This document shows, piece after piece, positions 31,834-60,008 of a stretch of DNA of 64,000 nucleotides. Position 1 is the stretch's first letter; every line of letters begins with the position of its first letter. The notes below the pieces were generated by a model. That model was given only the letters and a program-made list of their open reading frames with translations. It had not been told where the DNA came from and searched no databases. The stretch lies in IMG/VR virus record IMGVR_UViG_3300042324_001267. One strand, written 5' to 3'. This DNA is from a virus. Position numbers and translations under genes: made by a program.

Positions 31834-32271
31834 ATGTGGTTATATCAAAATAAAGAAATTAAAGAACTAGAAGATATGCCCGGAGACAACTTCGGGTTTA
31901 TCTATGAAGTAACACATCTACCAACCGGTAGAAAGTACTTAGGAAAGAAACAACTTATTTCTGTTACAAAAAAAGCTTTAGGTAAAAAAGAATTAGCTTT
32001 AATAACAGATAAAAGAGCTAGTAAATCTAAAATAGTTAGAAAAGAATCTGATTGGAAAACCTATTACGGTTCCCACTTAGAAATAAAAGGCTTAATAAAA
32101 GAAGGAAAACAGTCGGAATTCTCAAGAGAAATTCTTATCTTTACTCCAAATAAAAAGTTACATACATACTATGAGAACAAATTCCTATTTATAAAAGGAG
32201 TAATAGAACCAGATTCCAACTATATAAATGATAATATAGAAGGAAGATATTTTAGAAAAGATTTCTTATGA
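31834..32271 (+). CDS. GIY-YIG-family nuclease-like protein
   Basis: GFIYEVT...GRKYLGKK, WKTYYGS, YINDNI. Confidence 0.7.
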   Translation: MWLYQNKEIKELEDMPGDNFGFIYEVTHLPTGRKYLGKKQLISVTKKALGKKELALITDKRASKSKIVRKESDWKTYYGSHLEIKGLIKEGKQSEFSREILIFTPNKKLHTYYENKFLFIKGVIEPDSNYINDNIEGRYFRKDFL

Positions 32272-32825
32272 TAAAATTACAAGAAGTAGTAGGATTACCG
32301 AACCTACAGTACCACTTAGACAACAAGCTGACACTATCTGAATGTGTCTACCGCTATTCCTCTAATTCGTTTATACAATTGTTTGCTGAAGCAAGACAAG
32401 CCTTTAGAGACGGTAAAATTGTATTAAGTGAACAAGATATTCAACTACTAGAATTAACAGATATTGGACAATACGGAATGTATGAAGGACAAAAAGTACC
32501 TTTAGATCTTCCAATGGTCGATGAAGAACTTGATGAAGGAGAATACAGAGGTAAAGATGTTCCTTTAAATAAACCAAAAAGAGGCGGTTCTAAAAAATTC
32601 TACGTTTATACTAAGAATAAAAAAGGAAACGTAGTAAAAGTATCTTTTGGAGGTACAACAGGATTGAATGTTAAAATAGATGAGCCAGGAGCTAGATCTT
32701 CTTTCGCCGCTAGACATAAATGTGCTACTAAAAAAGATAAAACAAAACCAGGATACTGGGCTTGTAATATCGGAAGATATTGGAAATCTTTAGGAGGAAG
32801 TAGAAACTTTAGTGGATACTGGTAA
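32268..32825 (+). CDS. Two-domain hypothetical protein with basic C-terminal domain
   Basis: LDE|G junction, then KKFYVY..VKVSFG..SFAARHKC..GYWAC. Confidence 0.65.
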   Translation: MIKLQEVVGLPNLQYHLDNKLTLSECVYRYSSNSFIQLFAEARQAFRDGKIVLSEQDIQLLELTDIGQYGMYEGQKVPLDLPMVDEELDEGEYRGKDVPLNKPKRGGSKKFYVYTKNKKGNVVKVSFGGTTGLNVKIDEPGARSSFAARHKCATKKDKTKPGYWACNIGRYWKSLGGSRNFSGYW

Positions 32826-32826
32826 T

Positions 32827-33084
32827 ATGAGACCTTATTTTCAATTAGAGACATCAGAGTATCTTTATAGAAAATTTACACAAGATATCTCAGACGAAGA
32901 ATTAGTATGGCATAGAGATGAGAATGATAGAGAGGTAGAGATATTAGAATCTACCGATTGGATGTTTCAATTCGATAATGAATTACCGCAAGTATTAAAA
33001 GATAAAGTTTTTATACCAAAAGAGGTCTACCATAGGCTTATAAAAGGAACAGGAACGTTAAATGTAAGAATAAAAGAATACTAA
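32827..33084 (+). CDS. Small cupin-like protein
   Basis: WHRD..DR.V and FIPK..YHRLIKG cupin motifs; start at 32827 preferred. Confidence 0.6.
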   Translation: MRPYFQLETSEYLYRKFTQDISDEELVWHRDENDREVEILESTDWMFQFDNELPQVLKDKVFIPKEVYHRLIKGTGTLNVRIKEY

Positions 33085-33179
33085 TGATACAGGATATAAT
33101 AGCAGGCATAATCGTATTAGGTGCTTTTGCAATTCTATTAAATACTTTACTATTTATAATTAAACCTAAAAAGGAGTAA
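33084..33179 (+). CDS. 31-aa single-TM microprotein (absent from ORF track)
   Basis: TAATG overlap; MIQDIIAGIIVLGAFAILLNTLLFIIKPKKE*. Confidence 0.55.
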   Translation: MIQDIIAGIIVLGAFAILLNTLLFIIKPKKE

Positions 33180-33198
33180 TACTAATTATAAAATTCTA

Positions 33199-33288
33199 AT
33201 GGACGGAGGAGACATAGCGTATTATTGGATAGCAGCGGTTGTTACCTTAGCATTGTATTTAATTGTAGAGGAATATAAAAAAAAATAA
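33199..33288 (+). CDS. 29-aa single-TM microprotein (absent from ORF track)
   Basis: MDGGDIAYYWIAAVVTLALYLIVEEYKKK*. Confidence 0.5.
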   Translation: MDGGDIAYYWIAAVVTLALYLIVEEYKKK

Positions 33289-33291
33289 TTA

Positions 33292-33867
33292 ATGAAAAGA
33301 TCACAACTAGTAAAGTTAATAAAAGAAGAAATTAACATACAGGATAACGGACCAGAAGAAGCACAGTTTGATACAGAGTTAATGTCAACTGCTAACGGTA
33401 TTGCAGCAGCTATAGGTACAGAATTAAAGAATAAAAAACAACAGAACGAAGGTCAGTTAGATGAAGCAATTGTAGCAACTGTAATTGTAGGAGTTTTAAC
33501 AGGAAATGCACTTATAGGGTTTATTTCTAAAATGGCTGCTAGACTGTTAAAGAAACTTAACTGGAAAAAAGGAGAAGACTTTGCAGAAAAAATACACCAC
33601 TGGGCACATGATAATGAAAAAGCTTTTCAATCTCCAATTAAAAGAGTGTTAGGGTTTTTTATAAAAGATCCAAATACATTAGAAACAACAACTAAAGCTA
33701 TCTATGCAATTGTTATTGCAAGTATGGCAGCAGGATATGGAGCAGAAGCAGTAAGCGGATTATCAAAAGCAGATTGGTTTCAAGGAGCATTATCTTCTTT
33801 AAAAACAGTAGCCAAAGCAGATGAAGCAATACTAAATGCATACCCAGCAATTAAATCAATACTATAA
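33292..33867 (+). CDS. Leader-bearing protein with hydrophobic C-terminal domain
   Basis: MKRSQLVKLIKEEI leader; LDE|A then hydrophobic helices. Confidence 0.7.
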   Translation: MKRSQLVKLIKEEINIQDNGPEEAQFDTELMSTANGIAAAIGTELKNKKQQNEGQLDEAIVATVIVGVLTGNALIGFISKMAARLLKKLNWKKGEDFAEKIHHWAHDNEKAFQSPIKRVLGFFIKDPNTLETTTKAIYAIVIASMAAGYGAEAVSGLSKADWFQGALSSLKTVAKADEAILNAYPAIKSIL

Positions 33868-33877
33868 AACATATATA

Positions 33878-34312
33878 ATGAAAAAATCTGAATTAAAAAG
33901 AATTATTCAAGAAGAATTAAAAGGGTATTCAAAGTATGCTCCAGAAGGAGAAACTAAAGGAGGTACTACAGATGACTTTAGAAACATCTTAACAACAATT
34001 GCTAAAAGTGTTCCTAAAGAAGATTCAGAAGAGAAAACTGTTTCTGAAAATTCAATAAACTTTAATGAAGAAGAGATTAAAGCACAATTTCCTGATCTAG
34101 ATCTTAGCTACGGTTTTAAAGGAGAAAATATGCATGAAATTAGATCAATAAGAAAACGAAATCTAACAAAAGAGGAGTTTGAAAGTATAATTTCATTTTT
34201 AGAAGATAGAGGATATACTGTTTTGCGTAATAAATCTACTATGGATCTTGATGATGATGGTGACAGGTGGTACTACCCTTCTATCATATTTACAGCACCT
34301 ACTGAAGCTTAA
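33878..34312 (+). CDS. Leader-bearing hypothetical protein
   Basis: MKKSELKRIIQEEL; ATG at 33878 preferred over 33836. Confidence 0.7.
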   Translation: MKKSELKRIIQEELKGYSKYAPEGETKGGTTDDFRNILTTIAKSVPKEDSEEKTVSENSINFNEEEIKAQFPDLDLSYGFKGENMHEIRSIRKRNLTKEEFESIISFLEDRGYTVLRNKSTMDLDDDGDRWYYPSIIFTAPTEA

Positions 34313-34318
34313 AAAACG

Positions 34319-34762
34319 GTGATTAGTATTTATAAGATATTAAAAGAGGTAATTACGCCCTCTCAAGAGTACCAAGAACTTGTTAACAATATTGTTGATG
34401 AAGGAGGAGAGTATTTAGGAGAAGGAGATTATGGAGCAGTATTCTTAGTAGGAAATAAAGTAAAAAAAGTAACTACTGATTCAGAAGAATTGGAAGATGC
34501 ACAACAAATAAAAGGACAAAAAACTAAATACTTTGTATACATATACGATGTAGAAGTTAGAAATCCAAAACTAGGAATCATCACAATGGATAATCTAGAA
34601 CCTTTTACAGGGTCTGAGAAAGATGTTCCAATTGATGATATAATGGAAGAAGCAGAAATGCTAGGAATATATCCGGACTTAGAAGGACCAGGAGGTTCAA
34701 TTAAAATGGATAACCTAATGCAAGATAGGTATTACGGTAATATAAAGGTAATAGACGTATAA
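34319..34762 (+). CDS. Minimal protein kinase-like protein
   Basis: LGEGDYGAVF Gly-loop, KVT Lys, helix-C Glu, DL...DNLM, KVID. Confidence 0.6.
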   Translation: MISIYKILKEVITPSQEYQELVNNIVDEGGEYLGEGDYGAVFLVGNKVKKVTTDSEELEDAQQIKGQKTKYFVYIYDVEVRNPKLGIITMDNLEPFTGSEKDVPIDDIMEEAEMLGIYPDLEGPGGSIKMDNLMQDRYYGNIKVIDV

Positions 34763-40253: not shown

Positions 40254-40841
40254 ATGGGAAAATTAGCAGACTTATTACTAGAAGAATCAGACTTCATGCC
40301 TAAATATCAGATATATTGTGATATGGATGGAGTATTAACAGACTTTGAAAAGAGATTTGTTACATTATTACAACAAGAAGGTCCAAAGTACTATTCAAAA
40401 GCGACAATTGCTCAAGTAACAAGGCCTAAACACTTTGATAAACTAGAAGGAACAGAAGAGTTTTGGAAGTTTATTGATCAGTATATTGGATTAGAGTTCT
40501 GGTCAGAAATGGAATGGATGCCAAATGGTAGAGAGTTATGGAACTTTATACAACCATACGGACCAAAACTTTTAACATCTCCTTCCAGAGACAATACCTC
40601 AAGACTTGGTAAAAGATTATGGGTAAAAGAAAACCTAGTACCTGCCCCTGAAGTCTTATTTAGGTTTGGAGATGCTAAGTCGGATTTTGCAAATGAAAAT
40701 GCTATATTAATAGACGATAAGCCTTCCAACCTCGCTGCATTTTCTGCTAAAGGAGGAATAGCAATAGAGGTAAAAGACGGAGAAATACAATCGGTTATTA
40801 ATAAATTAAAACAACTTGGTTATGGGCGAGAGCTTACTTAA
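40254..40841 (+). CDS. HAD-family 5'(3')-nucleotidase-like phosphatase
   Basis: CDMDGVLTDF, LTSP, GK..W, LIDD. Confidence 0.8.
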   Translation: MGKLADLLLEESDFMPKYQIYCDMDGVLTDFEKRFVTLLQQEGPKYYSKATIAQVTRPKHFDKLEGTEEFWKFIDQYIGLEFWSEMEWMPNGRELWNFIQPYGPKLLTSPSRDNTSRLGKRLWVKENLVPAPEVLFRFGDAKSDFANENAILIDDKPSNLAAFSAKGGIAIEVKDGEIQSVINKLKQLGYGRELT

Positions 40842-41448: not shown

Positions 41449-41586
41449 ATGGCAAAAGCAGCACAATCTTCCGTTAAAATAGAGAGACCTAAAGTATCTA
41501 GACCTGGAGTTCATGCAAAATCTAAAACTTCAAAATTGAAGAGTTCTAAGAACTATAAAAAACTTTACAATGGACAAGGGAAGTAG
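41449..41586 (+). CDS. 45-aa highly basic microprotein (absent from ORF track)
   Basis: MAKAAQSSVKIERPKVSRPGVHAKSKTSKLKSSKNYKKLYNGQGK* after a TATTTAT motif. Confidence 0.65.
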   Translation: MAKAAQSSVKIERPKVSRPGVHAKSKTSKLKSSKNYKKLYNGQGK

Positions 41587-41809
41587 TAAAAAATTAAAAC
41601 AATTACTACAAGAAGCAGATAACCCTCAAGCAGGTAAAGCAGCACCTTATGGTTCAGGATATGCAAAGGTAAAACAAGCAATTCATGAACTTGTAAAAGA
41701 AGTTCTTTCAGAAAAAGTAAAAGGCGTTGACGGTAAAGCTTGTTGGAAGGGATACAGGTATGCTGGTACTAAAGATGGAAAAGACATCTGTGTAAAAATT
41801 ACAAAATAA
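41570..41809 (+). CDS. Leader-bearing small protein with CWKGY..C module
   Basis: LKQLLQE|A, VLSE|K, then CWKGYRYAGTKDGKDICV. Confidence 0.65.
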   Translation: MDKGSSKKLKQLLQEADNPQAGKAAPYGSGYAKVKQAIHELVKEVLSEKVKGVDGKACWKGYRYAGTKDGKDICVKITK

Positions 41810-41810: not shown

Positions 41811-42125
41811 ATGAAGCTACTACAACTATTAAAAGAAGCAAAAGAGGTATTAGAAGACTTCGCTAAAACCAGAGGAGAAGGTGCAGCTAAAATAGCATCA
41901 AATGCTCAAGAAAAAGGAGGACTTGCTTTGCTAACCTGGCATCATTTCAAAGTAAAAGCTCCGTATTATAAAAAAGCTTCTGAAGGAAAGCTTGATATGG
42001 AACAAGCAAAGAAAGAGTACGAAGAGACTTATAAAAAGATCTCTCTAGATATGACTCAAATTGAATTTCAAAGAGAGGTAGGAAGACTAGAAGTACTAGG
42101 AGAATTGCTAATAAAGAATAAATAA
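41811..42125 (+). CDS. Leader-bearing hypothetical protein
   Basis: MKLLQLLKEAK. Confidence 0.65.
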   Translation: MKLLQLLKEAKEVLEDFAKTRGEGAAKIASNAQEKGGLALLTWHHFKVKAPYYKKASEGKLDMEQAKKEYEETYKKISLDMTQIEFQREVGRLEVLGELLIKNK

Positions 42126-42769
42126 TGTCAACACTAAATACATCTATACCTCACTTCTATGCTAAGATGAGAATAGAACACCTCTACCAGCATGACGGGA
42201 GAGAAGGTATGCAAGATGTAATAGTATTTGGAGCACAATCTGTAGGAGGTAGAGCTCTTACCTTCCATATAATGACTGATGAAGGAGCTGTTAGATCAAG
42301 AGTTCCAATTCATATGCTTGCCTGGAAAGATGATGCACCAAAAATGGCTTTAGACCATTTACAACTATGGGATTGTTTTGGACATGAAGTATCATGTACA
42401 GCATACGATTACTTACTCCAATCAAGAGTAAAGGCAATATTTAAAGACGGTAGTAAAGAGTGGGGAAATTATATTATGACCTTTGATTGGTTTAATAATC
42501 CATATTCTAACGAACCAACACAATACAAGGCAGCACATCTAATTAAATTAGATAACGGAAATTTTACTCTTCAGCCTAATAATAGATTAATGTGGAGAGA
42601 TATGTCTTTTGTAACTCAACCATTTCCTGAAAAACCGGATTGGATGATTGATAATAAAGAGTGGTTTTGCGAATCAGTTTCCGATAAATGGACAATGGAA
42701 AAAGGTAATGAAAATATTTACTACTACACTTTAGAAAATGAAAAAAAGTCAACTAAAAAAGATAATTAA
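42125..42769 (+). CDS. Hypothetical protein
   Basis: 214-aa aromatic-rich ORF (LQLWDCF, QPNNR). Confidence 0.7.
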   Translation: MSTLNTSIPHFYAKMRIEHLYQHDGREGMQDVIVFGAQSVGGRALTFHIMTDEGAVRSRVPIHMLAWKDDAPKMALDHLQLWDCFGHEVSCTAYDYLLQSRVKAIFKDGSKEWGNYIMTFDWFNNPYSNEPTQYKAAHLIKLDNGNFTLQPNNRLMWRDMSFVTQPFPEKPDWMIDNKEWFCESVSDKWTMEKGNENIYYYTLENEKKSTKKDN

Positions 42770-43166
42770 AGAGGTATTAGATGCTTCAACACCTGCTCCT
42801 AGTGAAATACCGGGAGGACTAGCACAGTTTGCTACTATTGGAGATTTAGCTACAATGCATAATCTTCCTTTAGATCAAATCATAAAGCAGATAGTAAAAG
42901 GAGTAAAGACAGAATCAGAACATACAACAGATTTAGATATTGCTATGGAAATAGCTTTTGACCATGTATATGAAGATCCTAAATATTACGATAAATTATC
43001 CAACATAGAAGAAGGTAAACATGACCCAGTAGAACCGGGTATTTTAAAAAAAAGGTTAGGTAAACTTACCTGTTCAAAAGTAAGAGCAGAAAGAAGTAAA
43101 TTAGAAGACAAGGGTACTCATTATGCAAAAGCATTGCAGAGATACTTAAATTACCATTGTCAGTAA
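42738..43166 (+). CDS. Leader-bearing hypothetical protein
   Basis: MKKSQLKKIIKEVL; E.EHT....A.EIA.DH..EDP.YY module; IEE|G junction. Confidence 0.7.
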   Translation: MKKSQLKKIIKEVLDASTPAPSEIPGGLAQFATIGDLATMHNLPLDQIIKQIVKGVKTESEHTTDLDIAMEIAFDHVYEDPKYYDKLSNIEEGKHDPVEPGILKKRLGKLTCSKVRAERSKLEDKGTHYAKALQRYLNYHCQ

Positions 43167-43225: not shown

Positions 43226-44788
43226 ATGAAGAAATTAGTAAGAATAGTAGAAGCAGGAGAAAAGACAGCATTTATCCAAACAGCTAGAGGAGAAAAGAAG
43301 ACGATCGAATATAAAAAAGACGATGAACTTACAGGTTTGAAAGATAATCAGGATATTGCAAAAATTGATACTGCAGATGGTAAGAGAATAAAAGAAGAAG
43401 TACGAAAATATACTGCTCAAGAATCAGCAGCTGTAGGAAAAGCAGTAGCTAAATCTCTTGTAAAAGTTCTTAGAGCTCAAGGAGATGAAATCTCAAAACT
43501 AAGACTTACAGGAATAGGAGTTGATAGATTTAATATCCACGTTGAATATGGAAATGAAAAAGGAGTAGATACTTTTAAATTTGACCTAAACCCACAAGGT
43601 ACTGCTATCATATTAGACTTAGGAAACGAACCATTAGAGCTAGTAGACTTCGTGATAACACAAGGTAATACTGTTTCTCTACCTACTCCTGAGTTAGAAG
43701 ATAAACTAGGTGATGCAATGAAAAAGTATGTGGGAGAACCTACAGATGCTGAATATGATAATATGGCAGCAATGCAAGAGCCGACAGATCCTTCTCAATT
43801 TGCAAAAGAATTAAACGAAGATGATTGGAAACAATCAGACGACGAATCTACAATGGCAAAAGCACAGTTAAAATCTATTCAATCCAATGCAAGTAAGTTG
43901 ATGAATATAATAGGAGATAACGAGCAATTAGATGCATGGGTTCAAGCCAAGCTAACAAAAGCAGAAGATTATTTAGACTCAGCAGCAGGATACCTAGAAT
44001 CAGAAGAAGATGAAGAGGGTCATCAACCTGTAGCACTTGCAATAGCTTTAAATGAAAAGAAAGCTACATATTGCGGAAGATGTGGACATACCCATGTTAA
44101 GGGTACACCTTGTCCAAGACCTTTTAAAAATGAAGCATTAGATGCAGTTGGAAAAGAGGATGACGATATTAATAATGATGGAAAAGTCGATAAGACTGAT
44201 AAATACTTAAAAAACAGAAGAAATACTATCTCTAAAAAGATAACTAAAGAAGAACTGAGAGAATTAATGCTTGAAGCATATATCGAAGTTCTTAAAGAAG
44301 AAGAAGGAGCAGTATTAGAGACATCTACAGATGAAATACTAGGAAAATTTCCTACAGTAAAGAAAGCAATAACATCTCTATTTACAAAAGAATATCCAGA
44401 ATTTGTAACAGATATAAGATGGGTAGCACCAAAACCTTCCACATTTGCAGTTGATCTTAAAAACGGTCAATCATTTAACTTAAAATGGATGGGTAAAGGA
44501 TTTGAAGCACAAATAGAAGGTAAAAAATACTACTTAGATACTTTACAAGACTATCAACAAGCTTTAGATAAGATAAACGATATACTTAAGAACGGACCAA
44601 TCACACAAGGTGAAGAACCAGGTGGAGAAGAATTCGGAGCAGATCCAGCAGCACCAGCAGGTGGAGGAGGAGGAGATTTTCCAGGTGGAGAAGCTGGAGG
44701 AGAGCCAGCAGCTGAATTTGGAGCAGAAGAAGCACCAGCAGGGGAAGAAGAAGCAGGAGCAGAACCAGAAACACCAGAAGCACTTTAA
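43226..44788 (+). CDS. Modular hypothetical protein (putative head polyprotein)
   Basis: Modules separated by LNE/IKE/VLE; CGRCGHTH..C; [12 protein letters not shown] Ca-binding-like loop. Confidence 0.7.
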
Positions 44789-45799: not shown

Positions 45800-46690
45800 A
45801 TGGCAGATAATTTCAACTTAAGAACATTCTTAACAGAGAATAAACTTACTAAAAATGCACAGCTTCTTTCAGAAGGAATAGAGTTTAACGGTAAACCGGT
45901 AAACGTTGGATCGGTAGAAATCGATGGAATAGATACAGAAGATTACCCAGACTTTGTAGATGCATATATTGCAGCAGCAGAATACGAAGACGGTACTCCA
46001 TTAACAGACGAAGAATTAGTACAGTTTCAAGAAGAAAATTACGATTTAGTAAGCCAAATGATTCACGATGATCAGCTATACTTAGAAGCAAAGAAAGAAG
46101 ATGGTATGGAAGAAGCATCTAGCGAGGATATGGCTTATACTGAAAAAGTTGACGAAGCTTTAGCAGAAAGTAAATTAACTGCTAAAGAAAGACGTTTAGT
46201 AGAAATGGTTCAAAATGCTTTAGGAGAAGAAAATGTAGATTATACAATGGGACGTCAAGACGATCCAAATCAACTACCAAACCCAGCACCAGAACTTAAC
46301 ATACCAGAAGGAGAAGCTAATATAGAAGAAGCAAAACCTCTTCCAAAATATGAATCAATTGAAGAATTGATGAAAGAGATTGAACACGGTACTAACGAAG
46401 CAGCTCACAAATACAAAATGGATGAGATGAAAAGAGTTTACGAGGCTTTAGAGGCTAAAGTAGGGTCTTTAGAAGAAGGAGAGCATGCTGAGCATATCGA
46501 TCAAAAAGCTGTTAAGCAAATGCGTAAAGATATTGCAACATTAAGAAAAGCAGAAGAGAAATTAAGAAAAGAATTTGATAAAAAATTCTCAGGTAAAGAA
46601 AAGAAAGAAACTCCAGCTAAAGAAAAAGCAGTAGAAGCTTTACAAGAAGGATTCAACTTAAGAAAATTCTTAGCAGAAAACAGAAAATAA
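45800..46690 (+). CDS. Acidic hypothetical protein (putative head core protein)
   Basis: FNLRTFLTEN at N-terminus and FNLRKFLAEN at C-terminus. Confidence 0.7.
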   Translation: MADNFNLRTFLTENKLTKNAQLLSEGIEFNGKPVNVGSVEIDGIDTEDYPDFVDAYIAAAEYEDGTPLTDEELVQFQEENYDLVSQMIHDDQLYLEAKKEDGMEEASSEDMAYTEKVDEALAESKLTAKERRLVEMVQNALGEENVDYTMGRQDDPNQLPNPAPELNIPEGEANIEEAKPLPKYESIEELMKEIEHGTNEAAHKYKMDEMKRVYEALEAKVGSLEEGEHAEHIDQKAVKQMRKDIATLRKAEEKLRKEFDKKFSGKEKKETPAKEKAVEALQEGFNLRKFLAENRK

Positions 46691-48375: not shown

Positions 48376-50229
48376 ATGGCAGAAAGAAATTTATTTAACT
48401 CTCTCCAGAGATTATTCTCGACTGATATATTAGTTAGAAACGTAGGAGGGGATGAGTTGAAGATTGCTGATATTAATCACATACAATCAACAGGGAAATA
48501 TCAAACCAATTCACTATTGGATAGATTCTCTCGTCTATATATTTACAATAATAAAAATATATTTAACCCAAACCTTAATTACCAGACATTAAGGATACAA
48601 CTTTACTCAGACTATGAAGCAATGGATTCAGATCCACTTATTGCTTCCACTCTAGATATACTAGCAGATGAGTCTACACTAAAGAGTGCAATGGGAGAGG
48701 TTCTTTCTATTAAATCTACAGACGAAAACATACAAAGAGTCCTTTATAATTTATATTACGATGTATTGAACATCGAATTTAACCTATGGTCATGGGTTAG
48801 AAATATGTGTAAGTACGGGGACTTCTTTTTAAAATTAGAAATATCAGAAAAATTTGGTGTTTATAATGTTCTTCCTTATACAGTTTACCATATGGTAAGA
48901 CATGAAGGGATGGATAAAGAAGATCCAACTAAAGTAACATTCTCAATCGATCCAGACGGATTAGCTTCTTCATCAGATCCAAACTATATTCCAAATAATA
49001 GTAAGTCAGTTATCGCTTTAGATAATTACGAAGTAGCCCATTTCAGATTACTATCAGATACAAACTACCTTCCTTATGGTAGAGCTTATATTGAACCAGC
49101 TAGAAAAATTTACAAGCAATTGACTTTAATGGAGGATGCAATGTTGATTCACAGAATCATGAGAGCTCCTGAGAAGAGAATGTTCTACATTAACGTAGGA
49201 TCTATTCCACCAAACGAAGTTGAGCAGTTCATGCAAAAAACAATTAACAATATTAAGAAAACTCCATATGTAGATCCACAAACAGGTCAATATAACTTGA
49301 AATTCAACATGCAAAACATGATGGAGGATTTCTACTTACCGGTTAGAGGAGGAGATACATCTACAAGAATTGAGACTACTAAAGGATTGGAGTATGATGG
49401 TACAAACGATATCGAATACTTAAGAGATAAGATGTTTGCAGCACTAAAAGTGCCAAAAGCATATTTTGGATTTGAAAAAGACCTTACAGGTAAAGCAACT
49501 CTTGCAGCAGAAGATATTCGTTTTGCTAGAACAGTAGAAAGAATTCAAAGAATTGTAGAAAGTGAATTAACTAAAATTGGTTTAGTACATTTATACTCGC
49601 AAGGATTCGACAAAGAGTCTTTAGTAAACTTTGAAATTAAATTAACTACTCCTTCTATCATTTATGAACAAGAAAAAGTAGCTCTTTGGAAAGAGAAAGT
49701 TGACTTAGCAACTCAAATGCAAGCAACCAAACTATTCTCTTCAGACTATATCTACGATATGTTATTTGATATCTCAGAAGATAAGTATAACGAAATGAGA
49801 GAACTTATTAGAGAGGATGCTAAAAGAGAGTTTAGAATATCTCAAATTGAAAACGAAGGAAATGATCCAGTAGCTACAGGACAGTCTTTTGGAACACCTC
49901 ACGATTTAGCTTCAATATACGGAAGAGAACAAGGAGAATTACCAGCAGGGTATGACGAAACTAAACCTGGAAGACCTAGAGAGAAAATGTCTATACTAGG
50001 CACAAATGCAGACCCTGTAGGAGGAAGAGATAGACTAGGAGTTCAAGGAATGAAAGGCGGCTTTCCAAGTGATAATGAAAATGTAAAAGAAAACATAAAC
50101 AATACAATGTCAGTTTTTCTTAGAAACAAGAATATATTTATTCCTAAAAAGCAAAATATCTTTGAAGAAGAAGCAGAGAAAGAATCGGATCTCTTAAATG
50201 AAGAGAATATTAAAGATTTAGATAATTAA
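48376..50229 (+). CDS. Portal protein (T4 gp20-like)
   Basis: LMEDAMLIHRIMRAPEKRMFYINVG, MEDFYLPVRGG, ALKVP. Confidence 0.95.
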   Translation: MAERNLFNSLQRLFSTDILVRNVGGDELKIADINHIQSTGKYQTNSLLDRFSRLYIYNNKNIFNPNLNYQTLRIQLYSDYEAMDSDPLIASTLDILADESTLKSAMGEVLSIKSTDENIQRVLYNLYYDVLNIEFNLWSWVRNMCKYGDFFLKLEISEKFGVYNVLPYTVYHMVRHEGMDKEDPTKVTFSIDPDGLASSSDPNYIPNNSKSVIALDNYEVAHFRLLSDTNYLPYGRAYIEPARKIYKQLTLMEDAMLIHRIMRAPEKRMFYINVGSIPPNEVEQFMQKTINNIKKTPYVDPQTGQYNLKFNMQNMMEDFYLPVRGGDTSTRIETTKGLEYDGTNDIEYLRDKMFAALKVPKAYFGFEKDLTGKATLAAEDIRFARTVERIQRIVESELTKIGLVHLYSQGFDKESLVNFEIKLTTPSIIYEQEKVALWKEKVDLATQMQATKLFSSDYIYDMLFDISEDKYNEMRELIREDAKREFRISQIENEGNDPVATGQSFGTPHDLASIYGREQGELPAGYDETKPGRPREKMSILGTNADPVGGRDRLGVQGMKGGFPSDNENVKENINNTMSVFLRNKNIFIPKKQNIFEEEAEKESDLLNEENIKDLDN

Positions 50230-50258: not shown

Positions 50259-51113
50259 ATGCGTATTAAACACAGTAAGTATAAAAACACAGGCTTAATA
50301 TTTGAACTATTAGTAAAGCAAATAGCAGCGGATACCTTATCTAAAAGAGATTCCCCGGCATTGACAGTACTAAGAAAATTTTATACAGGAAACACAACAC
50401 TAGTAAGAGAGTTTAAATTATACGATTTTGTACTAAAAAATAAAGGCATTGGCCCTAAAAAAGCAGAATCAATACTAAGCACCATTGTAGAGATTTCTAG
50501 AAAACTAGATGCAAAATCTCTTAGTAAGCAAAAATATGAGCTTATAAAAGAACTTAAGAGTCATTACGATTTAGAGGAGTTCTTTTCTATTAAGGTAGAA
50601 GCATATAAGCCTCTAGCAGCTTTATATTGTTTAATGGAAGCACAAAATGCAGCAGAACTTGTAGACCTAGATGTATTTGTTGACAATAAAACTACAATAC
50701 TTGAGCACTTAACTCAAAGTAAAACAGCAGCCGGTCAAGTAAAAAATGCTTTAATTGAAGAGTATTCTAAATATGATAAAGATTTAAGACTTTTAACATA
50801 TAAAATATTACTAGAGAAATTTAATCACCAATATAAAGATTTACTTCCAGAACAGAAAAACATCTTGAAGGAATTTATAGTATCAGTTAACTCTTCTACA
50901 AGACTAAGAAACGTAGTAAATGAAGAAATGACTAAATTACAAGTAGAGATTTCTAAATTAAAAAAGAATATTACTGATAAAGTAGTAAAAATTAAATTAG
51001 AAGAGATTCAAAAAGTAATTATTCCTATAAAAAATACACAAAAAGTAGATGATAATCATTTAGTTTCATTAATGCAGTACTATGAATTAGTAAATGAATT
51101 AAGAAATCTATGA
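50259..51113 (+). CDS. Helical head-module hypothetical protein
   Basis: Between portal and protease. Confidence 0.65.
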   Translation: MRIKHSKYKNTGLIFELLVKQIAADTLSKRDSPALTVLRKFYTGNTTLVREFKLYDFVLKNKGIGPKKAESILSTIVEISRKLDAKSLSKQKYELIKELKSHYDLEEFFSIKVEAYKPLAALYCLMEAQNAAELVDLDVFVDNKTTILEHLTQSKTAAGQVKNALIEEYSKYDKDLRLLTYKILLEKFNHQYKDLLPEQKNILKEFIVSVNSSTRLRNVVNEEMTKLQVEISKLKKNITDKVVKIKLEEIQKVIIPIKNTQKVDDNHLVSLMQYYELVNELRNL

Positions 51114-51331
51114 AAAGATCAGAAGTACTAAAAGCAATACAGGAAGTATTGGCAGAAATGTCAACAACAGCAGGTATGGCAGTACCATCAACTCCATTTG
51201 CTTTTTCTAAAAAAGGACAAGGTAAAAATACAGCTACTAAAACAGCTGAAAAATTAGGTTATAAAACAGTTGAAAGACCTAAACGTCCTTCACACACAAA
51301 AATGTTTGATTACTTAGACGAAAATAAATAA
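51110..51331 (+). CDS. Leader-bearing small protein
   Basis: MKRSEVLKAIQEVLAE|MSTT. Confidence 0.65.
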   Translation: MKRSEVLKAIQEVLAEMSTTAGMAVPSTPFAFSKKGQGKNTATKTAEKLGYKTVERPKRPSHTKMFDYLDENK

Positions 51332-52315: not shown

Positions 52316-52894
52316 ATGAACAATTTATTAGTAAATGTAACTCCTTTCAAAGGAATGCTTACCGAATCAAAGGCTAAACCCGGAGTATTCGAAGTAACAG
52401 GCATTATGCAGAGAGCAGGAGCTAAGAATCAAAACGGAAGAATCTACAAAAGAGAAATTCTTGAAGAAGAAGTAAAAAATTATGTAGAGAATTTTGTTAA
52501 GATAGGAAATGCATACGGAGAATTAGATCATCCAGAATCAGCAATTGTCTCTTTAAAAAACGCATCACACGTTGTAAAAGACTTATGGTGGGATGGAGAT
52601 GACTTGATGGGTAAAGTTGAATTACTAAATACACCCTCAGGAAATATCGTAAAAGAAATATTAAGAGGAGGACATACAATTGGAATCTCTTCAAGAGGAA
52701 CAGGATCAGTATCACAAACCAATGAAGGAACTTTAATGGTACAGGATGATTTTGAATTAGTATGTTGGGATTTCGTTTCTAATCCATCAACACAAGGAGC
52801 TTTTATGAATCCAATTTCACTAAACGAAGGAAAACAATCAGTAGGAAAATACGATAGATTAGATTCTATTATTAACAATATATTAAGAGCATAA
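52316..52894 (+). CDS. Prohead protease (T4 gp21-like)
   Basis: NQNGRIY, GELDHP, ASH, GISSRGTG, DFVSNPS. Confidence 0.95.
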   Translation: MNNLLVNVTPFKGMLTESKAKPGVFEVTGIMQRAGAKNQNGRIYKREILEEEVKNYVENFVKIGNAYGELDHPESAIVSLKNASHVVKDLWWDGDDLMGKVELLNTPSGNIVKEILRGGHTIGISSRGTGSVSQTNEGTLMVQDDFELVCWDFVSNPSTQGAFMNPISLNEGKQSVGKYDRLDSIINNILRA

Positions 52895-53133
52895 TGGAAA
52901 ATAATTTCGACATACACAATTGGCAAGCTAAACACTTGACAAAATTACTAAAAGAAAATACAGTGCAAGAAGGAGGAGGATACGTAGAAGTGATGGGACC
53001 TCGTTTTGATGAAGCAATAGAAGCAATACAATTAGCTTGGGAAGAATGGAAAAACGGACCTATGACAGAGCCAGAAGATATTCCTCAAGCAAAGCAAGAC
53101 ATATTAGACTACATAGTAAGTCTTTTAAAATAA
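52894..53133 (+). CDS. Small hypothetical protein
   Basis: NFDIHNW..LLKE|N, VQE|G. Confidence 0.6.
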   Translation: MENNFDIHNWQAKHLTKLLKENTVQEGGGYVEVMGPRFDEAIEAIQLAWEEWKNGPMTEPEDIPQAKQDILDYIVSLLK

Positions 53134-53291: not shown

Positions 53292-54680
53292 ATGTCAAAC
53301 AAAGATTTATTAAAGCAAGCTATTGCTGAAGCGAAAACTATTCGTGAAGCTGCAATTGCCAACGCTAAAGAAGCTTTAGAAGAAACATTAACTCCACACT
53401 TAAAAGAAATGCTTGCTCAAAAGTTGCAAGAAATGGAAGATAAAGAAGATGAGGTAGTTGAAGAAAACATCTATGAAGCTGAAGAAGAAGAGGTAGAAGC
53501 AGGAGAAGGAGAAGAAGGAGCTGAAGAAGAAGCTGGTGAAGAAGAAGAAGGTAACGAAGAAGAAGAATTAGAAATCGAAGATATGTCTGTTGAAGACTTG
53601 AAAGATCTAATTAGAGATATCGTTGCACAAGAAGTAGGTCATGACGAATCAGAAGAAGAATTACCAGGCGAAGAAGCTCCAGCAGGAGAAGAAGATATGG
53701 TAAGTATGGATGGTGATTCAGAAGAGATCGATATTAACGAATTATTAGCAGAATTGGACGAAATGGACAAGGAAGAGGTTAAAGAAGAGAACATAAACGA
53801 AATGGGACCGGAGTATATCGAAGGAGCAGCACAGCTTGTTGAAATGTTTCCATTCTTAACTATGCAAACCGCATCATTAGTTATAGGAGCACTTGGTGCA
53901 GCAGGTCTAGCAGGATTTTCTGCAATTGCTGCTAAAGTAATGGATATGGCCCTAGCAGGTAAATTTGGAACAACAGGTAAAGCTTTTGCTGAAAAATTAC
54001 AAGCAGCAGGTGGTGCAGCAGCCAAAGTTACCCAAAACAGAGAAGGTGTTGAAGCAGTAAATGAAGAAGAAAATATAGATGAAAATATCGATATTATCTA
54101 TCAACTTATTGATGCTTTCCCATTCTTAACTAACCAAACTGCACAATTAGTAGTTGGAGCTTTAGGAGCAGCAGGTCTTACAGGATTATCTGCTATCATG
54201 GCTAAAGTACACGAAATGGCTAAAAACGGAGTTTTTGGTGAAAAAGGAAAACAAATCGGAGATAAATTATCCGATGTTGGTAGTGCAGCAGCAGGAGCAA
54301 GAAACGTATCTGAAGAGTCTGAAGAATTAAACGAAGCTTTAAAGACAGTTAAAATCTTAAGAAACCAACTTCAAGAAGTTAATCTTCTAAATGCAAAATT
54401 ACTTTATGTAAATAAAGTATTCAAATCAACTAACTTATCTGAAGGTCAAAAAGTAAATGTTATCGCAGCATTTGACAAAGCCGAAACAGTTAAGGAAGTA
54501 AAATTAGTTTTCGAAACAGTTTCTAAAAATGTAGTTACTAAACCAGCCGCATTAAAAGAGCACAGATCTTTTGCTTCTAAAGCAACAGGTAACGCAAACA
54601 CAACTGCACCAAAAGAAATCTTATCAGAAGTATCTGAGCAAGTATCAAGATGGCAGAAGTTAGCAGGAATTATTAAATAA
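53292..54680 (+). CDS. Prohead scaffold protein (gp22-like position) with hydrophobic insert
   Basis: Acidic coiled-coil protein between protease and capsid genes; C-terminal RWQKLAGI. Confidence 0.75.
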   Translation: MSNKDLLKQAIAEAKTIREAAIANAKEALEETLTPHLKEMLAQKLQEMEDKEDEVVEENIYEAEEEEVEAGEGEEGAEEEAGEEEEGNEEEELEIEDMSVEDLKDLIRDIVAQEVGHDESEEELPGEEAPAGEEDMVSMDGDSEEIDINELLAELDEMDKEEVKEENINEMGPEYIEGAAQLVEMFPFLTMQTASLVIGALGAAGLAGFSAIAAKVMDMALAGKFGTTGKAFAEKLQAAGGAAAKVTQNREGVEAVNEEENIDENIDIIYQLIDAFPFLTNQTAQLVVGALGAAGLTGLSAIMAKVHEMAKNGVFGEKGKQIGDKLSDVGSAAAGARNVSEESEELNEALKTVKILRNQLQEVNLLNAKLLYVNKVFKSTNLSEGQKVNVIAAFDKAETVKEVKLVFETVSKNVVTKPAALKEHRSFASKATGNANTTAPKEILSEVSEQVSRWQKLAGIIK

Positions 54681-54706: not shown

Positions 54707-56332
54707 ATGGAATTAAATCAATTATTCGAAGGGGCGAACAACTATAAGACTTTACAAGCTGATGCAGCTCGTTTGTCTGGTAAATGGGCCAAATCAGGTT
54801 TGTTAGAAGGAATTTCTAACGAAATCGAAAGAAACAACATGGCTATGATTCTTGAGAATCAAGCAAAACAAATCGTATCAGAAAATACTACAGGTACAGG
54901 TGCAATGGGTACTTCTACAGGTGGTGCTGAGCAATGGGCTGGAGTAGCTTTACCATTAGTACGTAAAGTATTCGCTCAAATCGCAGCTAAAGATTTCGTT
55001 TCTGTACAACCAATGAACTTACCTTCAGGACTTGTATTTTACTTAGACTTTAAATACGGTACAAACGCAGTAGGTAGAACAGACGGGGATAACCTTTACG
55101 GTAACGTTTCTACAGCTAACTCTAAAATTGGAGTAGATGTTGATCCATCAGGAGGTTTATACGGAGCAGGTCAATTTGGTTACTCAATCAACTCTGCATC
55201 TTCTGCAGGAGTTTACAGTACTACTGGATCAGCAGTATCTTCTTCTATCGCATACCAAGATGGAATAAATCCTTCAAACTATTTTACATTAGCATTCGGA
55301 ACAGGAAGTATCGCAGGATTCGATCCTAAAGGTGTTAGAGCATTCAGACTTTACTCTGCTTCAGTAGATGTAACTTCTAACCCAGAACTTACTTTCTTAT
55401 CTTCTTCTGCAGCAGGAGAATATGTGAAATTCGTAGGATTAGCATCAGGAATCACTACAGGATCTTTCACAGCTACTGTAAAATACCAAATGCAACCAAC
55501 TGACAGATCAAGAGGTGACTTCGAAGACGGAGGAACTAACCCAGCAGGAAACAACAACGGAACTATTAAAATTCCTGAAATCAACGTATCATTAGCTTCT
55601 GAAGCTATCGTTGCTAAAACAAGAAAATTAAAAGCACAATGGACTCCAGAGTTCGCACAAGATCTTAACTCTTACCATTCAATTGATGCTGAAGCAGAAT
55701 TAACTTCATTATTATCAGAGTACATCTCTATGGAGATTGACTTAGAGTTAATGGATATGTTAATCCAAGATGCAGCTACAACTGAAAGATGGTCAGCAGT
55801 TAACAACAAAAACTGGAACCCATCAACTAATGCTTGGGAAACAGGTACATTCAATGCAGGAACTAGTTTCTACAACACTCAAGGTCAATGGTTCGGAACT
55901 TTAGGTACTAAAGTACAAAAAGTATCTAACAAAATTCACCAAAAAACTTTAAGAGGTGGAGCTAACTTCTTAGTATGTTCTCCAACTGTAGCTACAATCT
56001 TAGAATCAATTCCAGGATATGCAGCAGATACAAACGGTGACAAAATGGACTTTGCAATGGGAGTTCAGAAAGTAGGTAACTTGAATTCTCGTTTCAGAGT
56101 TTACAAAAACCCTTACATGACTGAAAACGTAATCTTATTAGGTTACAGAGGATCTCAATTCTTGGAAACTGGTGCAGTTTATGCTCCATATATTCCATTA
56201 ATCATGACTCCATTAGTGTACAATCCAGAAACCTTTACACCAGTAAAAGGTATCATGACTCGTTACGCTAAGAAAATGATCAGACCAGAATTCTACGGTA
56301 AAATCTTCGTTAGCGATATCGCTACTGTATAA
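54707..56332 (+). CDS. Major capsid protein (T4 gp23-like)
   Basis: ILENQ, VQPMNLPSGLVF, AKTRKLKAQWT.E.AQDL..H..DAE.EL, YAPYIPL, P.KGIMTRY. Confidence 0.95.
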   Translation: MELNQLFEGANNYKTLQADAARLSGKWAKSGLLEGISNEIERNNMAMILENQAKQIVSENTTGTGAMGTSTGGAEQWAGVALPLVRKVFAQIAAKDFVSVQPMNLPSGLVFYLDFKYGTNAVGRTDGDNLYGNVSTANSKIGVDVDPSGGLYGAGQFGYSINSASSAGVYSTTGSAVSSSIAYQDGINPSNYFTLAFGTGSIAGFDPKGVRAFRLYSASVDVTSNPELTFLSSSAAGEYVKFVGLASGITTGSFTATVKYQMQPTDRSRGDFEDGGTNPAGNNNGTIKIPEINVSLASEAIVAKTRKLKAQWTPEFAQDLNSYHSIDAEAELTSLLSEYISMEIDLELMDMLIQDAATTERWSAVNNKNWNPSTNAWETGTFNAGTSFYNTQGQWFGTLGTKVQKVSNKIHQKTLRGGANFLVCSPTVATILESIPGYAADTNGDKMDFAMGVQKVGNLNSRFRVYKNPYMTENVILLGYRGSQFLETGAVYAPYIPLIMTPLVYNPETFTPVKGIMTRYAKKMIRPEFYGKIFVSDIATV

Positions 56333-57318: not shown

Positions 57319-57353
57319 CGTATATTTATTGTAAACAAATACAGTTTATATTT

Positions 57354-58040
57354 ATGGCTTCTAACCATCACACCGATGAGGTTTTTACTCCAAAGAGAAA
57401 ACCAAAAAACCCAATTAAGTTTCAACTCCAACTTAATGACGAACAAAAATTAGCAAAAGCACTTATCGTAGAAAATCCAGTAGTCGTTCTAAAAGGAATG
57501 GCAGGTTCAGGAAAGACTTTAGTAGCAGTACAAGCAGCTCTAGATATGTTATTCTGTAAAGAGGTAGAGAAGATTGTTATCACAAGACCTACAGTGGCTA
57601 AGGAAGAATTAGGCTTTTTACCAGGCGATCTTAAAGAAAAGATGGATCCGTGGTTAGCACCAATATACCACAACCTTTATATGCTATACGGAAAAGATAA
57701 AGTAGATAAAGAATTGGAATACGGAAATATTGAAATTGTACCATTTGCATTTATGAGAGGTAGAACATTTGTTAACTCTTTTGTAATTGTAGATGAGGCA
57801 CAAAACGTTACTCAAGATCAAATGGAAACAGTATTGGGGAGACTTGGTAAAAATTCTAAAATGGTAATCTGCGGGGATTTAGCTCAAATAGATTTAAAAG
57901 TAAAGAAAGAAACAGGATTTTCTTTTCTTACAAGAATTGAAGAGCAAGTAAAAGGTTTTAGAGTATTTGCTTTAAAAGCTAATCACAGACATGAGATTGT
58001 AGCACCTATACTAAAGGTATATCAAGATTTTAGGGATTAA
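57354..58040 (+). CDS. phoH: PhoH-family ATPase
   Basis: GMAGSGKT, TRP, LGFLPG..EKM.PW, FMRGRTF, DEAQN, GD..Q.D, RH. Confidence 0.95.
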   Translation: MASNHHTDEVFTPKRKPKNPIKFQLQLNDEQKLAKALIVENPVVVLKGMAGSGKTLVAVQAALDMLFCKEVEKIVITRPTVAKEELGFLPGDLKEKMDPWLAPIYHNLYMLYGKDKVDKELEYGNIEIVPFAFMRGRTFVNSFVIVDEAQNVTQDQMETVLGRLGKNSKMVICGDLAQIDLKVKKETGFSFLTRIEEQVKGFRVFALKANHRHEIVAPILKVYQDFRD

Positions 58041-58074
58041 AGTAAGTCGCTATTTATAAATAAACTATTTGGTA

Positions 58075-58494
58075 ATGGCAAAATTTACATACTTTATACG
58101 AGAAAGACTTAAATTAAACGGAGTTGAAAGAGGTACAAACTTTGAAACATCTATAACAGGTGTTAACTATGCAGATAGCAGAGTAATGTCAGTACCTTCA
58201 GGATCAATGACTGAGATTATTAACTTAGCAGCACTTCCAGGAGCAGGTACTTTTGTATCAAGCAGTGTAAGGTATGCTAGAATTTCAAATCTTTCAACAG
58301 GATCTGTTAATTTACAACTATCTGGTTCAACACATCAATTCAACTTCCTACTTCGAGGAAGCGGTAGCTTTATATTTAATTCAGAATACGTAAGCGGTCA
58401 GTTTAATAACTTTACATATGGAGATTTAAGATCAGTAAAAGCTTCTCCAGTTGACTCAGAAGCTACTATTGGATACTTAGTAGTAACTACTTAA
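58075..58494 (+). CDS. Putative virion structural protein
   Basis: Beta-rich ORF after TATTTATA motif. Confidence 0.6.
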   Translation: MAKFTYFIRERLKLNGVERGTNFETSITGVNYADSRVMSVPSGSMTEIINLAALPGAGTFVSSSVRYARISNLSTGSVNLQLSGSTHQFNFLLRGSGSFIFNSEYVSGQFNNFTYGDLRSVKASPVDSEATIGYLVVTT

Positions 58495-58506
58495 ACTTTT
58501 TAAAAC

Positions 58507-59709
58507 ATGGCAAATATTCAAATCTGGGATGGTAGTACAAACTTCATAGCAGGGGAATCAACTCCCTTTGGCTTTTATGATGATGACTTATCTTTCCAAG
58601 AAGATGCACCTAAGGTAGCACGTTATTGTGCTGAGAAATTAGGATGGCCGGTACTAGATATAGAATTACACGAAAGACAACTTTACGCAGCTTTTGAAGA
58701 AGCAGTTACTGCTTACGGAAAAGAAGTAATAGAAGCTATAACTGCAGAGACATTATCTTCCCAATTAGGAGGAAGTGCTGGAGGTTCAGCTGTAAATCAA
58801 ACTATATTTAGACCTAGTTTACAGAATGTAATTCTAACAAGTGCACAATACGGAACAGAAGCAGGAGTAGGAGGACCAGTTACCCTAAGAACAGCAATGA
58901 TTGATCTTGTAGCAAACCAACAAGACTATAACCTTACAACTCTAATAGGACAAGGAGCAATTGAAATACGAAAAGTATTTTACGAAGCACCTCCTGCTAT
59001 TATGAGATACTTTGACCCATATGCAGGAACAGGAACAGGTATTCAGTCTCTTATGGATGCATTTGATTTTGGATCATTCTCACCAGGGGTAAACTTCTTA
59101 TTGATGCCAGCATCTTATGATGTATTAAAAACACAAGCAATTGAGTTTAACGATCAAATAAGAAAATCAACTTACTCTTTTGAGATTCATAATAATATAT
59201 TAACTTTATTTCCAGTACCAGCAAAAGCCGGTAAATTAAAAGTACAGTATTATATACTCAGTGAAAAAACAGGTCAATACATAAGTGATACTATTTCATT
59301 TGCAGCTTCTGCAAATTCTTCTGGAGCAATAACAGGAACAGGAGGAAGTAGTTCAACAACAGGTGTAACAACCAATATGTCAAATGCTAATGCACAAAAT
59401 TTAGTATACTCTGAAATAAACGCAATAGGACGTCAGTGGATATTCAAGTATGCAGCAGCTACCTGTAAAGAGATATTAGCATACGTTAGAGGTAAGTACG
59501 AAACAGTACCAGTACCAGGATCAGAAGTTAGGTTAAATGCAGCAGATTTATTAGCAGATGCAAGAACAGAGAAAGCTACTTTGGTAGAATCTTTAAAAGC
59601 AACAATGCAAACAGCATCTCTAACAAACCAGCTTTCCTTACAAGCAACACAAACACAATATATCAATGATGCTTTATCTAAAGTACCAATGTTAATATAC
59701 GTAGGATAA
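58507..59709 (+). CDS. Neck/head-tail adaptor (gp13-like)
   Basis: LGWPVLDIEL..QL; WI.KYA.A..KE.L..VRGKY...P..LN. Confidence 0.7.
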   Translation: MANIQIWDGSTNFIAGESTPFGFYDDDLSFQEDAPKVARYCAEKLGWPVLDIELHERQLYAAFEEAVTAYGKEVIEAITAETLSSQLGGSAGGSAVNQTIFRPSLQNVILTSAQYGTEAGVGGPVTLRTAMIDLVANQQDYNLTTLIGQGAIEIRKVFYEAPPAIMRYFDPYAGTGTGIQSLMDAFDFGSFSPGVNFLLMPASYDVLKTQAIEFNDQIRKSTYSFEIHNNILTLFPVPAKAGKLKVQYYILSEKTGQYISDTISFAASANSSGAITGTGGSSSTTGVTTNMSNANAQNLVYSEINAIGRQWIFKYAAATCKEILAYVRGKYETVPVPGSEVRLNAADLLADARTEKATLVESLKATMQTASLTNQLSLQATQTQYINDALSKVPMLIYVG

Positions 59710-60008
59710 TGAGAAAACTAATAAACGAAGTAACTTTTGGAATATACCAAGGCCTTATCAGGGTTGGTCACAAAGATGAAATTACAGCTTCAGAGGTTGC
59801 AGATTTCGTTAGAGCTATGCCAGGTGTTACAAGAGTTACAGCTATTGATTCAGATGAAGATAGAAATATAGTTGTACTAAAAGTAAAAATATTAACTGCC
59901 AAACCAGGTCCAGTTGTATTTGAAAAGTTAAAAAAAGATACATTTAAGTTAGTACCTAATATTAAAAAGGTAGACTTGTCTTTAAAATCAATTGAAAAAA
60001 TAGAATAA
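59709..60008 (+). CDS. Small leader-bearing hypothetical protein
   Basis: MRKLINE|V; ferredoxin-like alternating pattern. Confidence 0.6.
   Translation: MRKLINEVTFGIYQGLIRVGHKDEITASEVADFVRAMPGVTRVTAIDSDEDRNIVVLKVKILTAKPGPVVFEKLKKDTFKLVPNIKKVDLSLKSIEKIE

Follow-up and report, generated by a model that had tools for sequence, protein, structure and literature searches.

The virus record IMGVR_UViG_3300042324_001267 of IMG/VR is represented here by a stretch of 64,000 nucleotides, called the window below, in which about 17 open reading frames (ORFs) with otherwise dissimilar products begin with a short leader of common design, hydrophobic residues at set positions being followed by a glutamate. 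This leader is a tag that is shared by unrelated proteins and transferable between protein bodies, and across uncultured phages it tracks a prohead protease of the gp21 family. We consider it likely that the leaders constitute a capsid targeting and processing system of the type found in phage T4, expanded and diversified in this lineage.

Every plausible gene of the window lies on the plus strand (to which all coordinates below refer; ORFs are named after their first position), the GC content is about 34%, and Shine-Dalgarno sequences are absent. The genomes of vB_FspM_immuto (immuto below), a Flavobacterium phage of 160 kb from the Baltic Sea, share about 88% DNA identity with the head region of the window. 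As judged from sequence, the source is a Flavobacterium myophage related to immuto, and the lineage is a deep branch among phages with T4-type heads.

Leader-bearing genes of the window

A strict motif, Phi-x-x-Phi-[IL]-x-E (Phi being a hydrophobic residue), anchored on the glutamate and ending by residue 16, was matched by 13 of the 77 plus-strand ORFs: 9487, 33292, 33878, 34319, 40254, 41570, 41811, 42738, 45800, 51110, 53292, 58075 and 59709. With four carriers of looser leaders (32268, 43226, 44788 and 52894) the total comes to about 17, close to the roughly 15 unrelated ORFs that an earlier note on this DNA had reported. All N-termini quoted in that note are present in the sequence where it placed them, and most of them fit the strict motif; MKKLVRIVE of 43226 and MIKLQE of 32268 do not, and its list lacked 45800, 58075, 44788 and 52894. 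Once the leaders are removed, no two carriers of the window resemble each other, every comparison within a database of 15 sequences giving E > 0.01.

Three leader classes can be told apart: class A, MKKSELKKIIKEE; class B, MxNFDLKKFLVENKLT; and class C, MIKL/MKLLxxLxE. Class-A leaders are found on 33292 (33292-33867, 191 aa; MKRSQLVKLIKE), on 33878 (33878-34312, 144 aa; MKKSELKRIIQE), on 42738 (42738-43166, 142 aa), where MKKSQLKKIIKE is followed by a linker and a DUF5661 domain (PF18905, E = 1e-11), and on 51110 (51110-51331, 73 aa), a small protein at the position of T4 gp67 in which MKRSEVLKAIQE is followed by VLAE and by a C-terminal site. The start of 33878 is an internal ATG of an ORF that opens at 33836, and is supported by metagenomic homologues, which have only one open codon upstream of it. 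Class B is represented by 45800 (45800-46690, 296 aa; MADNFNLRTFLTE...LLSE), which belongs to the largest class-B body family, and in degenerate form by 52894 (52894-53133, 79 aa), whose leader ends in LLKE at residue 21.

Four carriers have leaders of exactly ten residues: 34319 (34319-34762, 147 aa, GTG start; MISIYKILKE), whose body has a minimal protein-kinase fold; 40254 (40254-40841, 195 aa; MGKLADLLLE); 44788 (44788-45762, 324 aa), with valine at the third position before the predicted cut (P3, the glutamate being P1); and 58075 (58075-58494, 139 aa; MAKFTYFIRE, read from the ATG at 58075). The leader of 40254 is an extension, since the NT5C/HAD 5'-nucleotidase domain (PF06941, E = 7e-7; phrog_2643, E = 2e-22) starts only at residue 20, and it is kept in immuto and in its relative G039. 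The remaining strict carriers are 41570 (41570-41809, 79 aa), with a site at E15 (KKLKQLLQE), three more at residues 40-48 and a partial match to phrog_4359; 41811 (41811-42125, 104 aa; MKLLQLLKE); 59709 (59709-60008, 99 aa; MRKLINE), which follows the head-tail adaptor gene at 58507; the scaffold-position protein 53292, described below; and 9487 (9487-9906, 139 aa), where three further Phi-x-E sites, extending to residue 28, are stacked behind the leader MKLDLLKKLIKE, which is kept in immuto and G039. The looser leaders of the multi-module protein 43226 (43226-44788, 520 aa; MKKLVRIVE) and of the weak carrier 32268 (32268-32825, 185 aa; MIKLQE; phrog_7595, of unknown function) complete the set; the G039 orthologue of 32268 reads MIKLLNLLVE from an internal methionine, which is a full class-C leader.

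Pfam and PHROGs returned nothing for most carriers or their neighbours, and no carrier matched a Pfam or PHROG family of internal virion proteins. The earlier note had spoken of many diverse enzymes, a description that goes too far: only 34319 and 40254 look like enzymes, and 93 of the 96 metagenomic body families described below are without any Pfam match. On these comparisons the carriers are many diverse small proteins with few enzymes among them, and mostly ORFans.

The head module

A T4-type head module was identified with Pfam, consisting of the large terminase (46772-48346), a gp20-type portal (48376-50229), a Peptidase_S77 protease (52316-52894) and a gp23-type major capsid protein (MCP; 54707-56332; E = 8e-80), the last with a propeptide of about 62 residues. 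Terminase and portal are without the leader, which is likewise missing from the primase and fibre ORFs, as the earlier note had observed. Its assignment of a gp21 homologue to 52316 is borne out by a match to PF03420 (E = 2.5e-35, residues 20-172). Beyond the immuto phages the nearest relatives of this protease belong to T4-like cyanophages (about 40% identity), and T4 gp21 is 35% identical. The portal, scaffold-position and MCP genes surround it.

The scaffold-position protein (53292-54680, 462 aa) is acidic and has the N-terminus MSNKDLLKQAIAE/A (a slash marks a cleavage site, predicted for proteins of the window). Neither Pfam nor PHROGs has a match to it, so that its putative role as scaffold follows from position and N-terminus; three genomes agree in all of its first 26 residues, at an overall identity of about 55%. 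Highly acidic as it is, the protein has two Gly/Ala-rich hydrophobic repeats (about residues 185-240 and 285-340), which are unexpected for a T4-type scaffold. The immuto orthologue is labelled 'DNA polymerase phi-like', a label probably suggested by the acidic run.

Frequency of the motif

The leaders are more frequent than shuffled N-termini, as the earlier note's reading implied. Shuffling residues 2-16 inside each protein gave 2.0 +/- 1.3 matches (maximum 8 in 2000 shuffles) against the 13 observed, and windows of equal size deeper in the same proteins gave one or two; the reversed motif had no match, and the motif with aspartate in place of glutamate had one. In the complete immuto genome the motif was found in 13 of 80 late-region ORFs versus 4 of 150 early-region ORFs (Fisher p = 3e-4). 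Good leaders are present on three of the ORFs counted as early in immuto (L002:1803-2318, L002:24569-24994 and L003:10009-10353; one class B, one class C reading MIKLIDLLTE, and MSLINEIKQILSE), which implies that tagged genes are not confined to the structural region. An independent genome of 182 kb, G006, has 23 carriers against 5.7 +/- 2.2 after shuffling, including class A and eight tandem class-C genes (MIKLKDILKE). The excess in G039 is modest (11 carriers, where shuffles gave 3.9 +/- 1.8 and at most 11), and this genome, being that of an immuto relative, is not an independent test.

As a control, the same motif was applied to 135 kb of T4, where it matched 12 of 215 ORFs. The matches recover ipII, ipIII, gp24 and Alt and include gp2 and gp61.1; the remaining six, about 3% of the T4 ORFs, have no known link to the head. 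The gp61.1 gene (L005:18966-19130) encodes a hypothetical protein of 54 aa that begins with MKTFKEFIKE, a near-perfect capsid-targeting sequence (CTS), and gp2 begins with MAIFQIINE.

Spread and portability of the leaders

IMG/VR was scanned for class A with a degenerate DNA pattern for MK[KR]S[EQ]L.[KR].I[KQ]E, and at least 111 stretches with at least 139 ORFs were found. The leader stands at the true N-terminus of every one, and the ORFs often belong to small genes arrayed in tandem; among the matches listed, 99 unique ORFs fall into 71 body families. Positions 13-20, which the pattern leaves unconstrained, are also conserved and lead to a second Phi-x-E site at E20, and a second site about eight residues downstream is frequent in the leaders. 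Class B, first met on 45800 and three immuto ORFs and searched for as M-x-NF[DN]L[KR]xFLxENKLT...[IL]xE, was found in at least 118 stretches and on at least 47 body families. Together the two classes precede at least 96 unrelated body families (at least 80 aa), always at the true N-terminus. In the alignment of the 96 family representatives the glutamate is the only invariant column, and leucine at P7 is more than 90% conserved. Short-peptide tblastn searches of cultured phages, whose sensitivity is low with queries of 23-24 residues, matched immuto alone with class B and had no useful result with class A.

The earlier note had called the leader a portable tag, and several bodies were indeed found behind more than one leader class. 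In L134 and L173 the body of 33292 (class A) follows a leader of class B (67-69% identity over 150-158 aa), that of 45800 (class B) has a class-A version in L117, and that of 41811 stands in G006 behind the class-C leader MIKLKNILSE. Homologues of 52894 have a class-A (L072) or class-B (L189) leader, and the similarity starts directly after the predicted cut. Some members of the 34319 family have no leader and start at the conserved body. At other loci it is the body that has been exchanged: 33878 has only residues 1-42 in common with its immuto and G039 orthologues, and 44788 keeps residues 1-45 in both genomes, the remainder being swapped. On these alignments the carrier loci are mosaic between close relatives, and resemble the internal protein (IP) loci of T-even phages, which are polymorphic (PMC3012670).

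Identical leader residues are written with different codons in different copies (serine as TCA, TCT or AGT), and the upstream DNA differs as well, which indicates that selection acts on the peptide itself. A mobile DNA cassette of promoter plus leader was considered and rejected on the same variation.

Association with the gp21-family protease

Genes for an S77 protease were found in 33 of 51 leader-bearing records, namely in 20 of 35 with class A and in 13 of 16 with class B. All seven leader records that are at least 90% complete have it, and the records without it are fragments of 7-42% completeness. A decoy, namely a Lys-rich N-terminal pattern with lysine at P1 and far less specific than class A, had only 73 single matches in the whole collection, compared with the at least 111 stretches of class A; S77 was present on 3 of 29 larger decoy contigs and on 1 of 8 complete ones (p = 1.5e-6 for the contrast with leader contigs). 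Two of the leader-bearing viral contigs, G019 and G026 (the parent records of L051 and L070), have S77 genes with two or three in-frame TGA codons, which suggests phages in which TGA is recoded.

Correspondence with T4 targeting and cleavage sites

Mutagenesis of T4 IPIII has assigned targeting to residues 4 and 7 and processing to residues 8 and 10 (PMC9026906). The 10-residue leaders of 58075, 44788, 34319 and 40254 have hydrophobic residues at 4, 7 and 8 and glutamate at 10, and class A has the spacing of the IPIII CTS, offset by two residues; the window leaders have the geometry of the T4 CTS. The structural proteins fit the same pattern. In the MCP, SGLLE/G and QIVSE/N align with PLLE/G and FLTE/A of T4 gp23, the second of which is the site that yields the mature MCP of T4, and the N-terminus of 53292, ending in AIAE/A, parallels MLKEQLIAE/A of T4 gp22. 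The 52316 protease has an MLTE site of its own at residue 17, directly before the catalytic domain at residue 20, comparable with the site of T4 gp21 at LIE-9 (PMC9026906). The order of genes (portal, small core ORFs, protease, scaffold, MCP) is also that of the T4 core genes; no homology to gp67, gp68 or gp22 could be detected for the core-position ORFs 50259, 51110, 51333, 52894 and 53292.

The mini-kinase and the multi-module protein

In an alignment of 38 sequences of the 34319 family, G36, G39, K50, E57 and N132 are invariant and D146 is more than 90% conserved, so that the Gly loop, beta3 lysine, alphaC glutamate, D-x4-N motif and DFG-position aspartate are all kept within 147 residues. 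The AF2 model has a pLDDT of 90.6, with the leader as a detached helix (pLDDT 55) ahead of a compact body, and of at least 500 matches in the PDB the top ones are all protein kinases (probability 1.00, TM about 0.5); no Pfam kinase model reaches its threshold. What is missing is the full C-lobe, with its activation segment and the helices that bind the substrate, and the chain ends one residue after the DFG-equivalent aspartate. By fold and motifs 34319 is a truncated 'mini-kinase', and may rank among the smallest kinase-like proteins. The same kinase module is also embedded in multi-enzyme phage chains of 700-2500 residues (P0128-P0139). Public metagenomes contain this lineage in abundance: 467 relatives of the 34319 protein were found at E <= 1e-5, each of the 120 listed being at least 87% identical, and the exact protein is encoded on 31 contigs of up to 143 kb. 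For 44788, a single-sequence AF2 model was unusable (pLDDT 38).

Internal copies of the leader, noted earlier in two proteins, are present at about residues 343-358 of 43226 and 167-177 of 51333. In 43226 there are also L-N-E joints at residues 198 and 277. In the immuto orthologue (L001:19007-21532) an insertion of 326 aa is bounded exactly by two L-N-E sites, and there are five additional [ILVM]-N-E joints. Module 202-257 of 43226 exists in G006 as a free-standing, leader-bearing ORF of 84 aa (88809-89063) that adjoins the G006 MCP gene. By its arrangement 43226 looks like a small version of a multi-enzyme phage chain.

Upstream elements and a homing endonuclease

The sequence TATAAAWA stands 16-20 nt before the ATG of the portal gene and of four carriers, among them 33292 (at -18), 40254 (at -18) and 58075 (at -20). 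The same place, 16-19 nt 5' of the ATG, is occupied in small genes at the left end by AATTAAAA, which is strongly strand-specific in the window (22 copies on the plus strand and 1 on the minus strand; region 1-5000 and 40816) and is a candidate early promoter or initiation element. An argument for common late promoters was reduced to a hint, TATAAAWA being without strand bias overall. At 31834-32271 lies a SegE-type GIY-YIG homing endonuclease (Pfam E = 1.2e-25), whose immuto orthologue is labelled 'NAD synthetase'.

Discussion

If the leaders work as the CTS of T4 does, each would fold into a short amphipathic helix at the N-terminus, in which P7, P4 and P3 are hydrophobic and P1 is glutamate, and this helix would dock its protein onto the scaffolding core during prohead assembly; the scaffold-position protein 53292 begins with the same motif. 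After closure of the shell, the 52316 protease would cut behind the glutamate and remove the tag, and the mature protein would stay inside the head, from where it could leave with the DNA at infection. The multi-module 43226 would in addition be cut at its internal L-N-E joints. The lineage would use at least three interchangeable leaders for this purpose, often with the second site. That the tagged proteins dock, are cut, stay in the virion and are injected is what we infer from this correspondence, and some small carriers with stacked sites may be core proteins that serve assembly only and are not delivered.

Several points weigh against a T4-type targeting system. We found no virion proteome, N-terminal mapping or cleavage assay for this phage or for immuto, which is why packaging, cleavage and injection are given as predictions. 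The motif was shaped after examples were known, about two of its 13 matches are expected to be false, and four early-region ORFs of immuto match it too. It also matches the T4 ligase and the G006 terminase, and misses half of the known T4 substrates (ipI, gp67, gp68, gp21, gp22 and gp23, which have looser sites). An unbiased enumeration of residue pairs indicates that N-termini rich in Lys and in Leu/Ile are general in the genome, early genes included; the pair I.E alone occurs 12 times versus 3.7 expected (p = 3e-4) and fails correction for 1152 tests. The enumeration mostly recovers this Lys/Leu bias and does not decide the matter by itself; the significance of the motif lies in its full four-position form. 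Several carriers sit among replication genes (primase, exonuclease), away from the head module, and 9487 is located amid a cluster of baseplate genes, outside the span 32268-60008 in which the other carriers lie. Shared late expression is thinly supported, TATAAAWA occurring 16 times on the plus and 24 times on the minus strand.

The alternative that survives best is that the tag brings proteins into the prohead, but that most of them serve assembly only, as T4 gp67, gp68 and gp22 do, and are chopped and expelled. The small carriers 51110, 52894, 41570 and 9487, with their stacked Phi-x-E sites and partly at the positions of T4 gp67 and gp68, are what such core proteins would look like, and the leader of the scaffold-position protein agrees with it. 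Folded carriers with a single site (the kinase 34319, the nucleotidase 40254 and the DUF5661 protein 42738) would however make poor scaffold filler, and the speed with which bodies change between close relatives is more in keeping with an arms race than with a part in assembly; we regard this alternative as unlikely.

We think it improbable that the common N-terminus is an amphipathic helix of a general kind, whose task has nothing to do with the capsid (efficient initiation of translation in an AT-rich genome, for instance, or docking to another partner) and to which the glutamate is incidental. Pairs such as KK and K.L are enriched at early-gene N-termini too, and a few early-region ORFs match the motif, as such a helix would lead one to expect; against it, the glutamate is specific (13 carriers with Glu versus 1 with Asp, and the sole invariant column across 96 families), composition-preserving N-terminal shuffles give 2.0 matches, the tag tracks S77 across contigs while the Lys-rich decoy N-terminus does not, and the codon differences between copies argue against a signal at the level of mRNA. 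Less probable still is a recognition sequence for a different modifying enzyme, in the style of the leaders of ribosomally synthesized and post-translationally modified peptides. Genomes of the immuto type do have genes for radical-SAM enzymes, QueE for example, but among the 35 class-A records PF04055 (Radical_SAM) was found in only 6 (in 3 of them over the cut-off) and in 1 of the 3 near-complete ones, versus S77 in 20 and in all 3 near-complete ones, and a leader served by a radical-SAM enzyme was rejected on these counts; no enzyme other than S77 was seen to co-vary with the leaders, a systematic search for one not having been made. Chance or paralogy, that is, a compositional accident in an AT-rich, Lys-rich genome made apparent by a motif defined post hoc, or the remains of one duplicated family, is hardly tenable after the low shuffle and positional controls, the dissimilar bodies, and the same leaders on at least 96 families in other phages (with only 73 decoy matches).

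The concept of a T4-type targeting and processing system, which is the reading that we prefer, was established in T4 and is also known from giant phages, where the propeptides are longer. In T4 the CTS is removed by gp21 from IPI, IPII, IPIII and Alt as a propeptide of 10-19 aa, with hydrophobic residues 4, 7 and 8 and glutamate 10, and the same arrangement is found in four leaders of the window; in both phages, the tag is common to unrelated, fast-evolving proteins of a phage with gp20/gp21/gp23-type head genes. The bodies of the window carriers, unlike the tag, have no sequence homology to the T4 IPs, so that the likeness is one of the tag and its predicted mechanism only. The window differs from T4 further in its number of candidates (about 17 in 64 kb versus three IPs and Alt in the whole of T4), in at least three leader sequences that are exchanged on the same body, in the frequent second site about eight residues downstream, in the Flavobacterium host, in a protease only about 35% identical to gp21, and in the Gly/Ala-rich hydrophobic repeats of 53292, of which gp22 shows no sign.

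Encapsulins offer a more distant comparison, a short terminal cargo-loading peptide sending diverse cargo into an HK97-fold shell; as a rule these tags sit at the C-terminus, they bind to the shell protein itself and no protease takes them off, and neither DNA nor delivery is involved. In the giant phages phiKZ, 201phi2-1 and SPN3US, many head proteins are processed after glutamate by a gp21-related protease, and identical N-termini on diverged paralogues have been proposed to have a targeting role (PMC5694885). The sites there are [A/S/G]-x-E, behind propeptides mostly of more than 100 residues, whereas the tags of the window have 7-25 residues and end in [I/L/V]-x-E, as in T4. The literature that we searched describes neither these leader classes nor their expansion in T4-type phages of hosts other than enterobacteria, and Nolan et al. 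(2006) and Petrov et al. (2010) make no mention of internal proteins.

Tentatively, and with slightly more doubt than confidence, we extend the proposal from the window to a clade of aquatic phages, large and for the most part uncultured, with heads of the T4 type (genomes of about 150-180 kb, the cultured immuto phages included), in which any ORF that starts with one of a few interchangeable leaders would be loaded and injected. Their 'ejectome' could then be read from sequence, and would comprise more than 100 ORFan families, a minimal kinase of 137 residues, a 5'-nucleotidase and multi-module proteins from which the head protease would release separate effectors. The idea is directly testable because immuto phages are in culture.

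Among the proteins that enter the cell with the DNA of T4 are factors for anti-restriction and for host takeover. If the tags of the window work as in T4, the proteins co-delivered with the DNA could be listed from the genome for widespread and abundant aquatic phages, and would be the first to act in the cell; the more than 100 ORFan families would be candidate early effectors, a remarkably small kinase among them. The loading signal of T4 would then be an old, exchangeable module and not a peculiarity of the T-even phages, and it would offer a route to package foreign proteins in phages of Bacteroidota.

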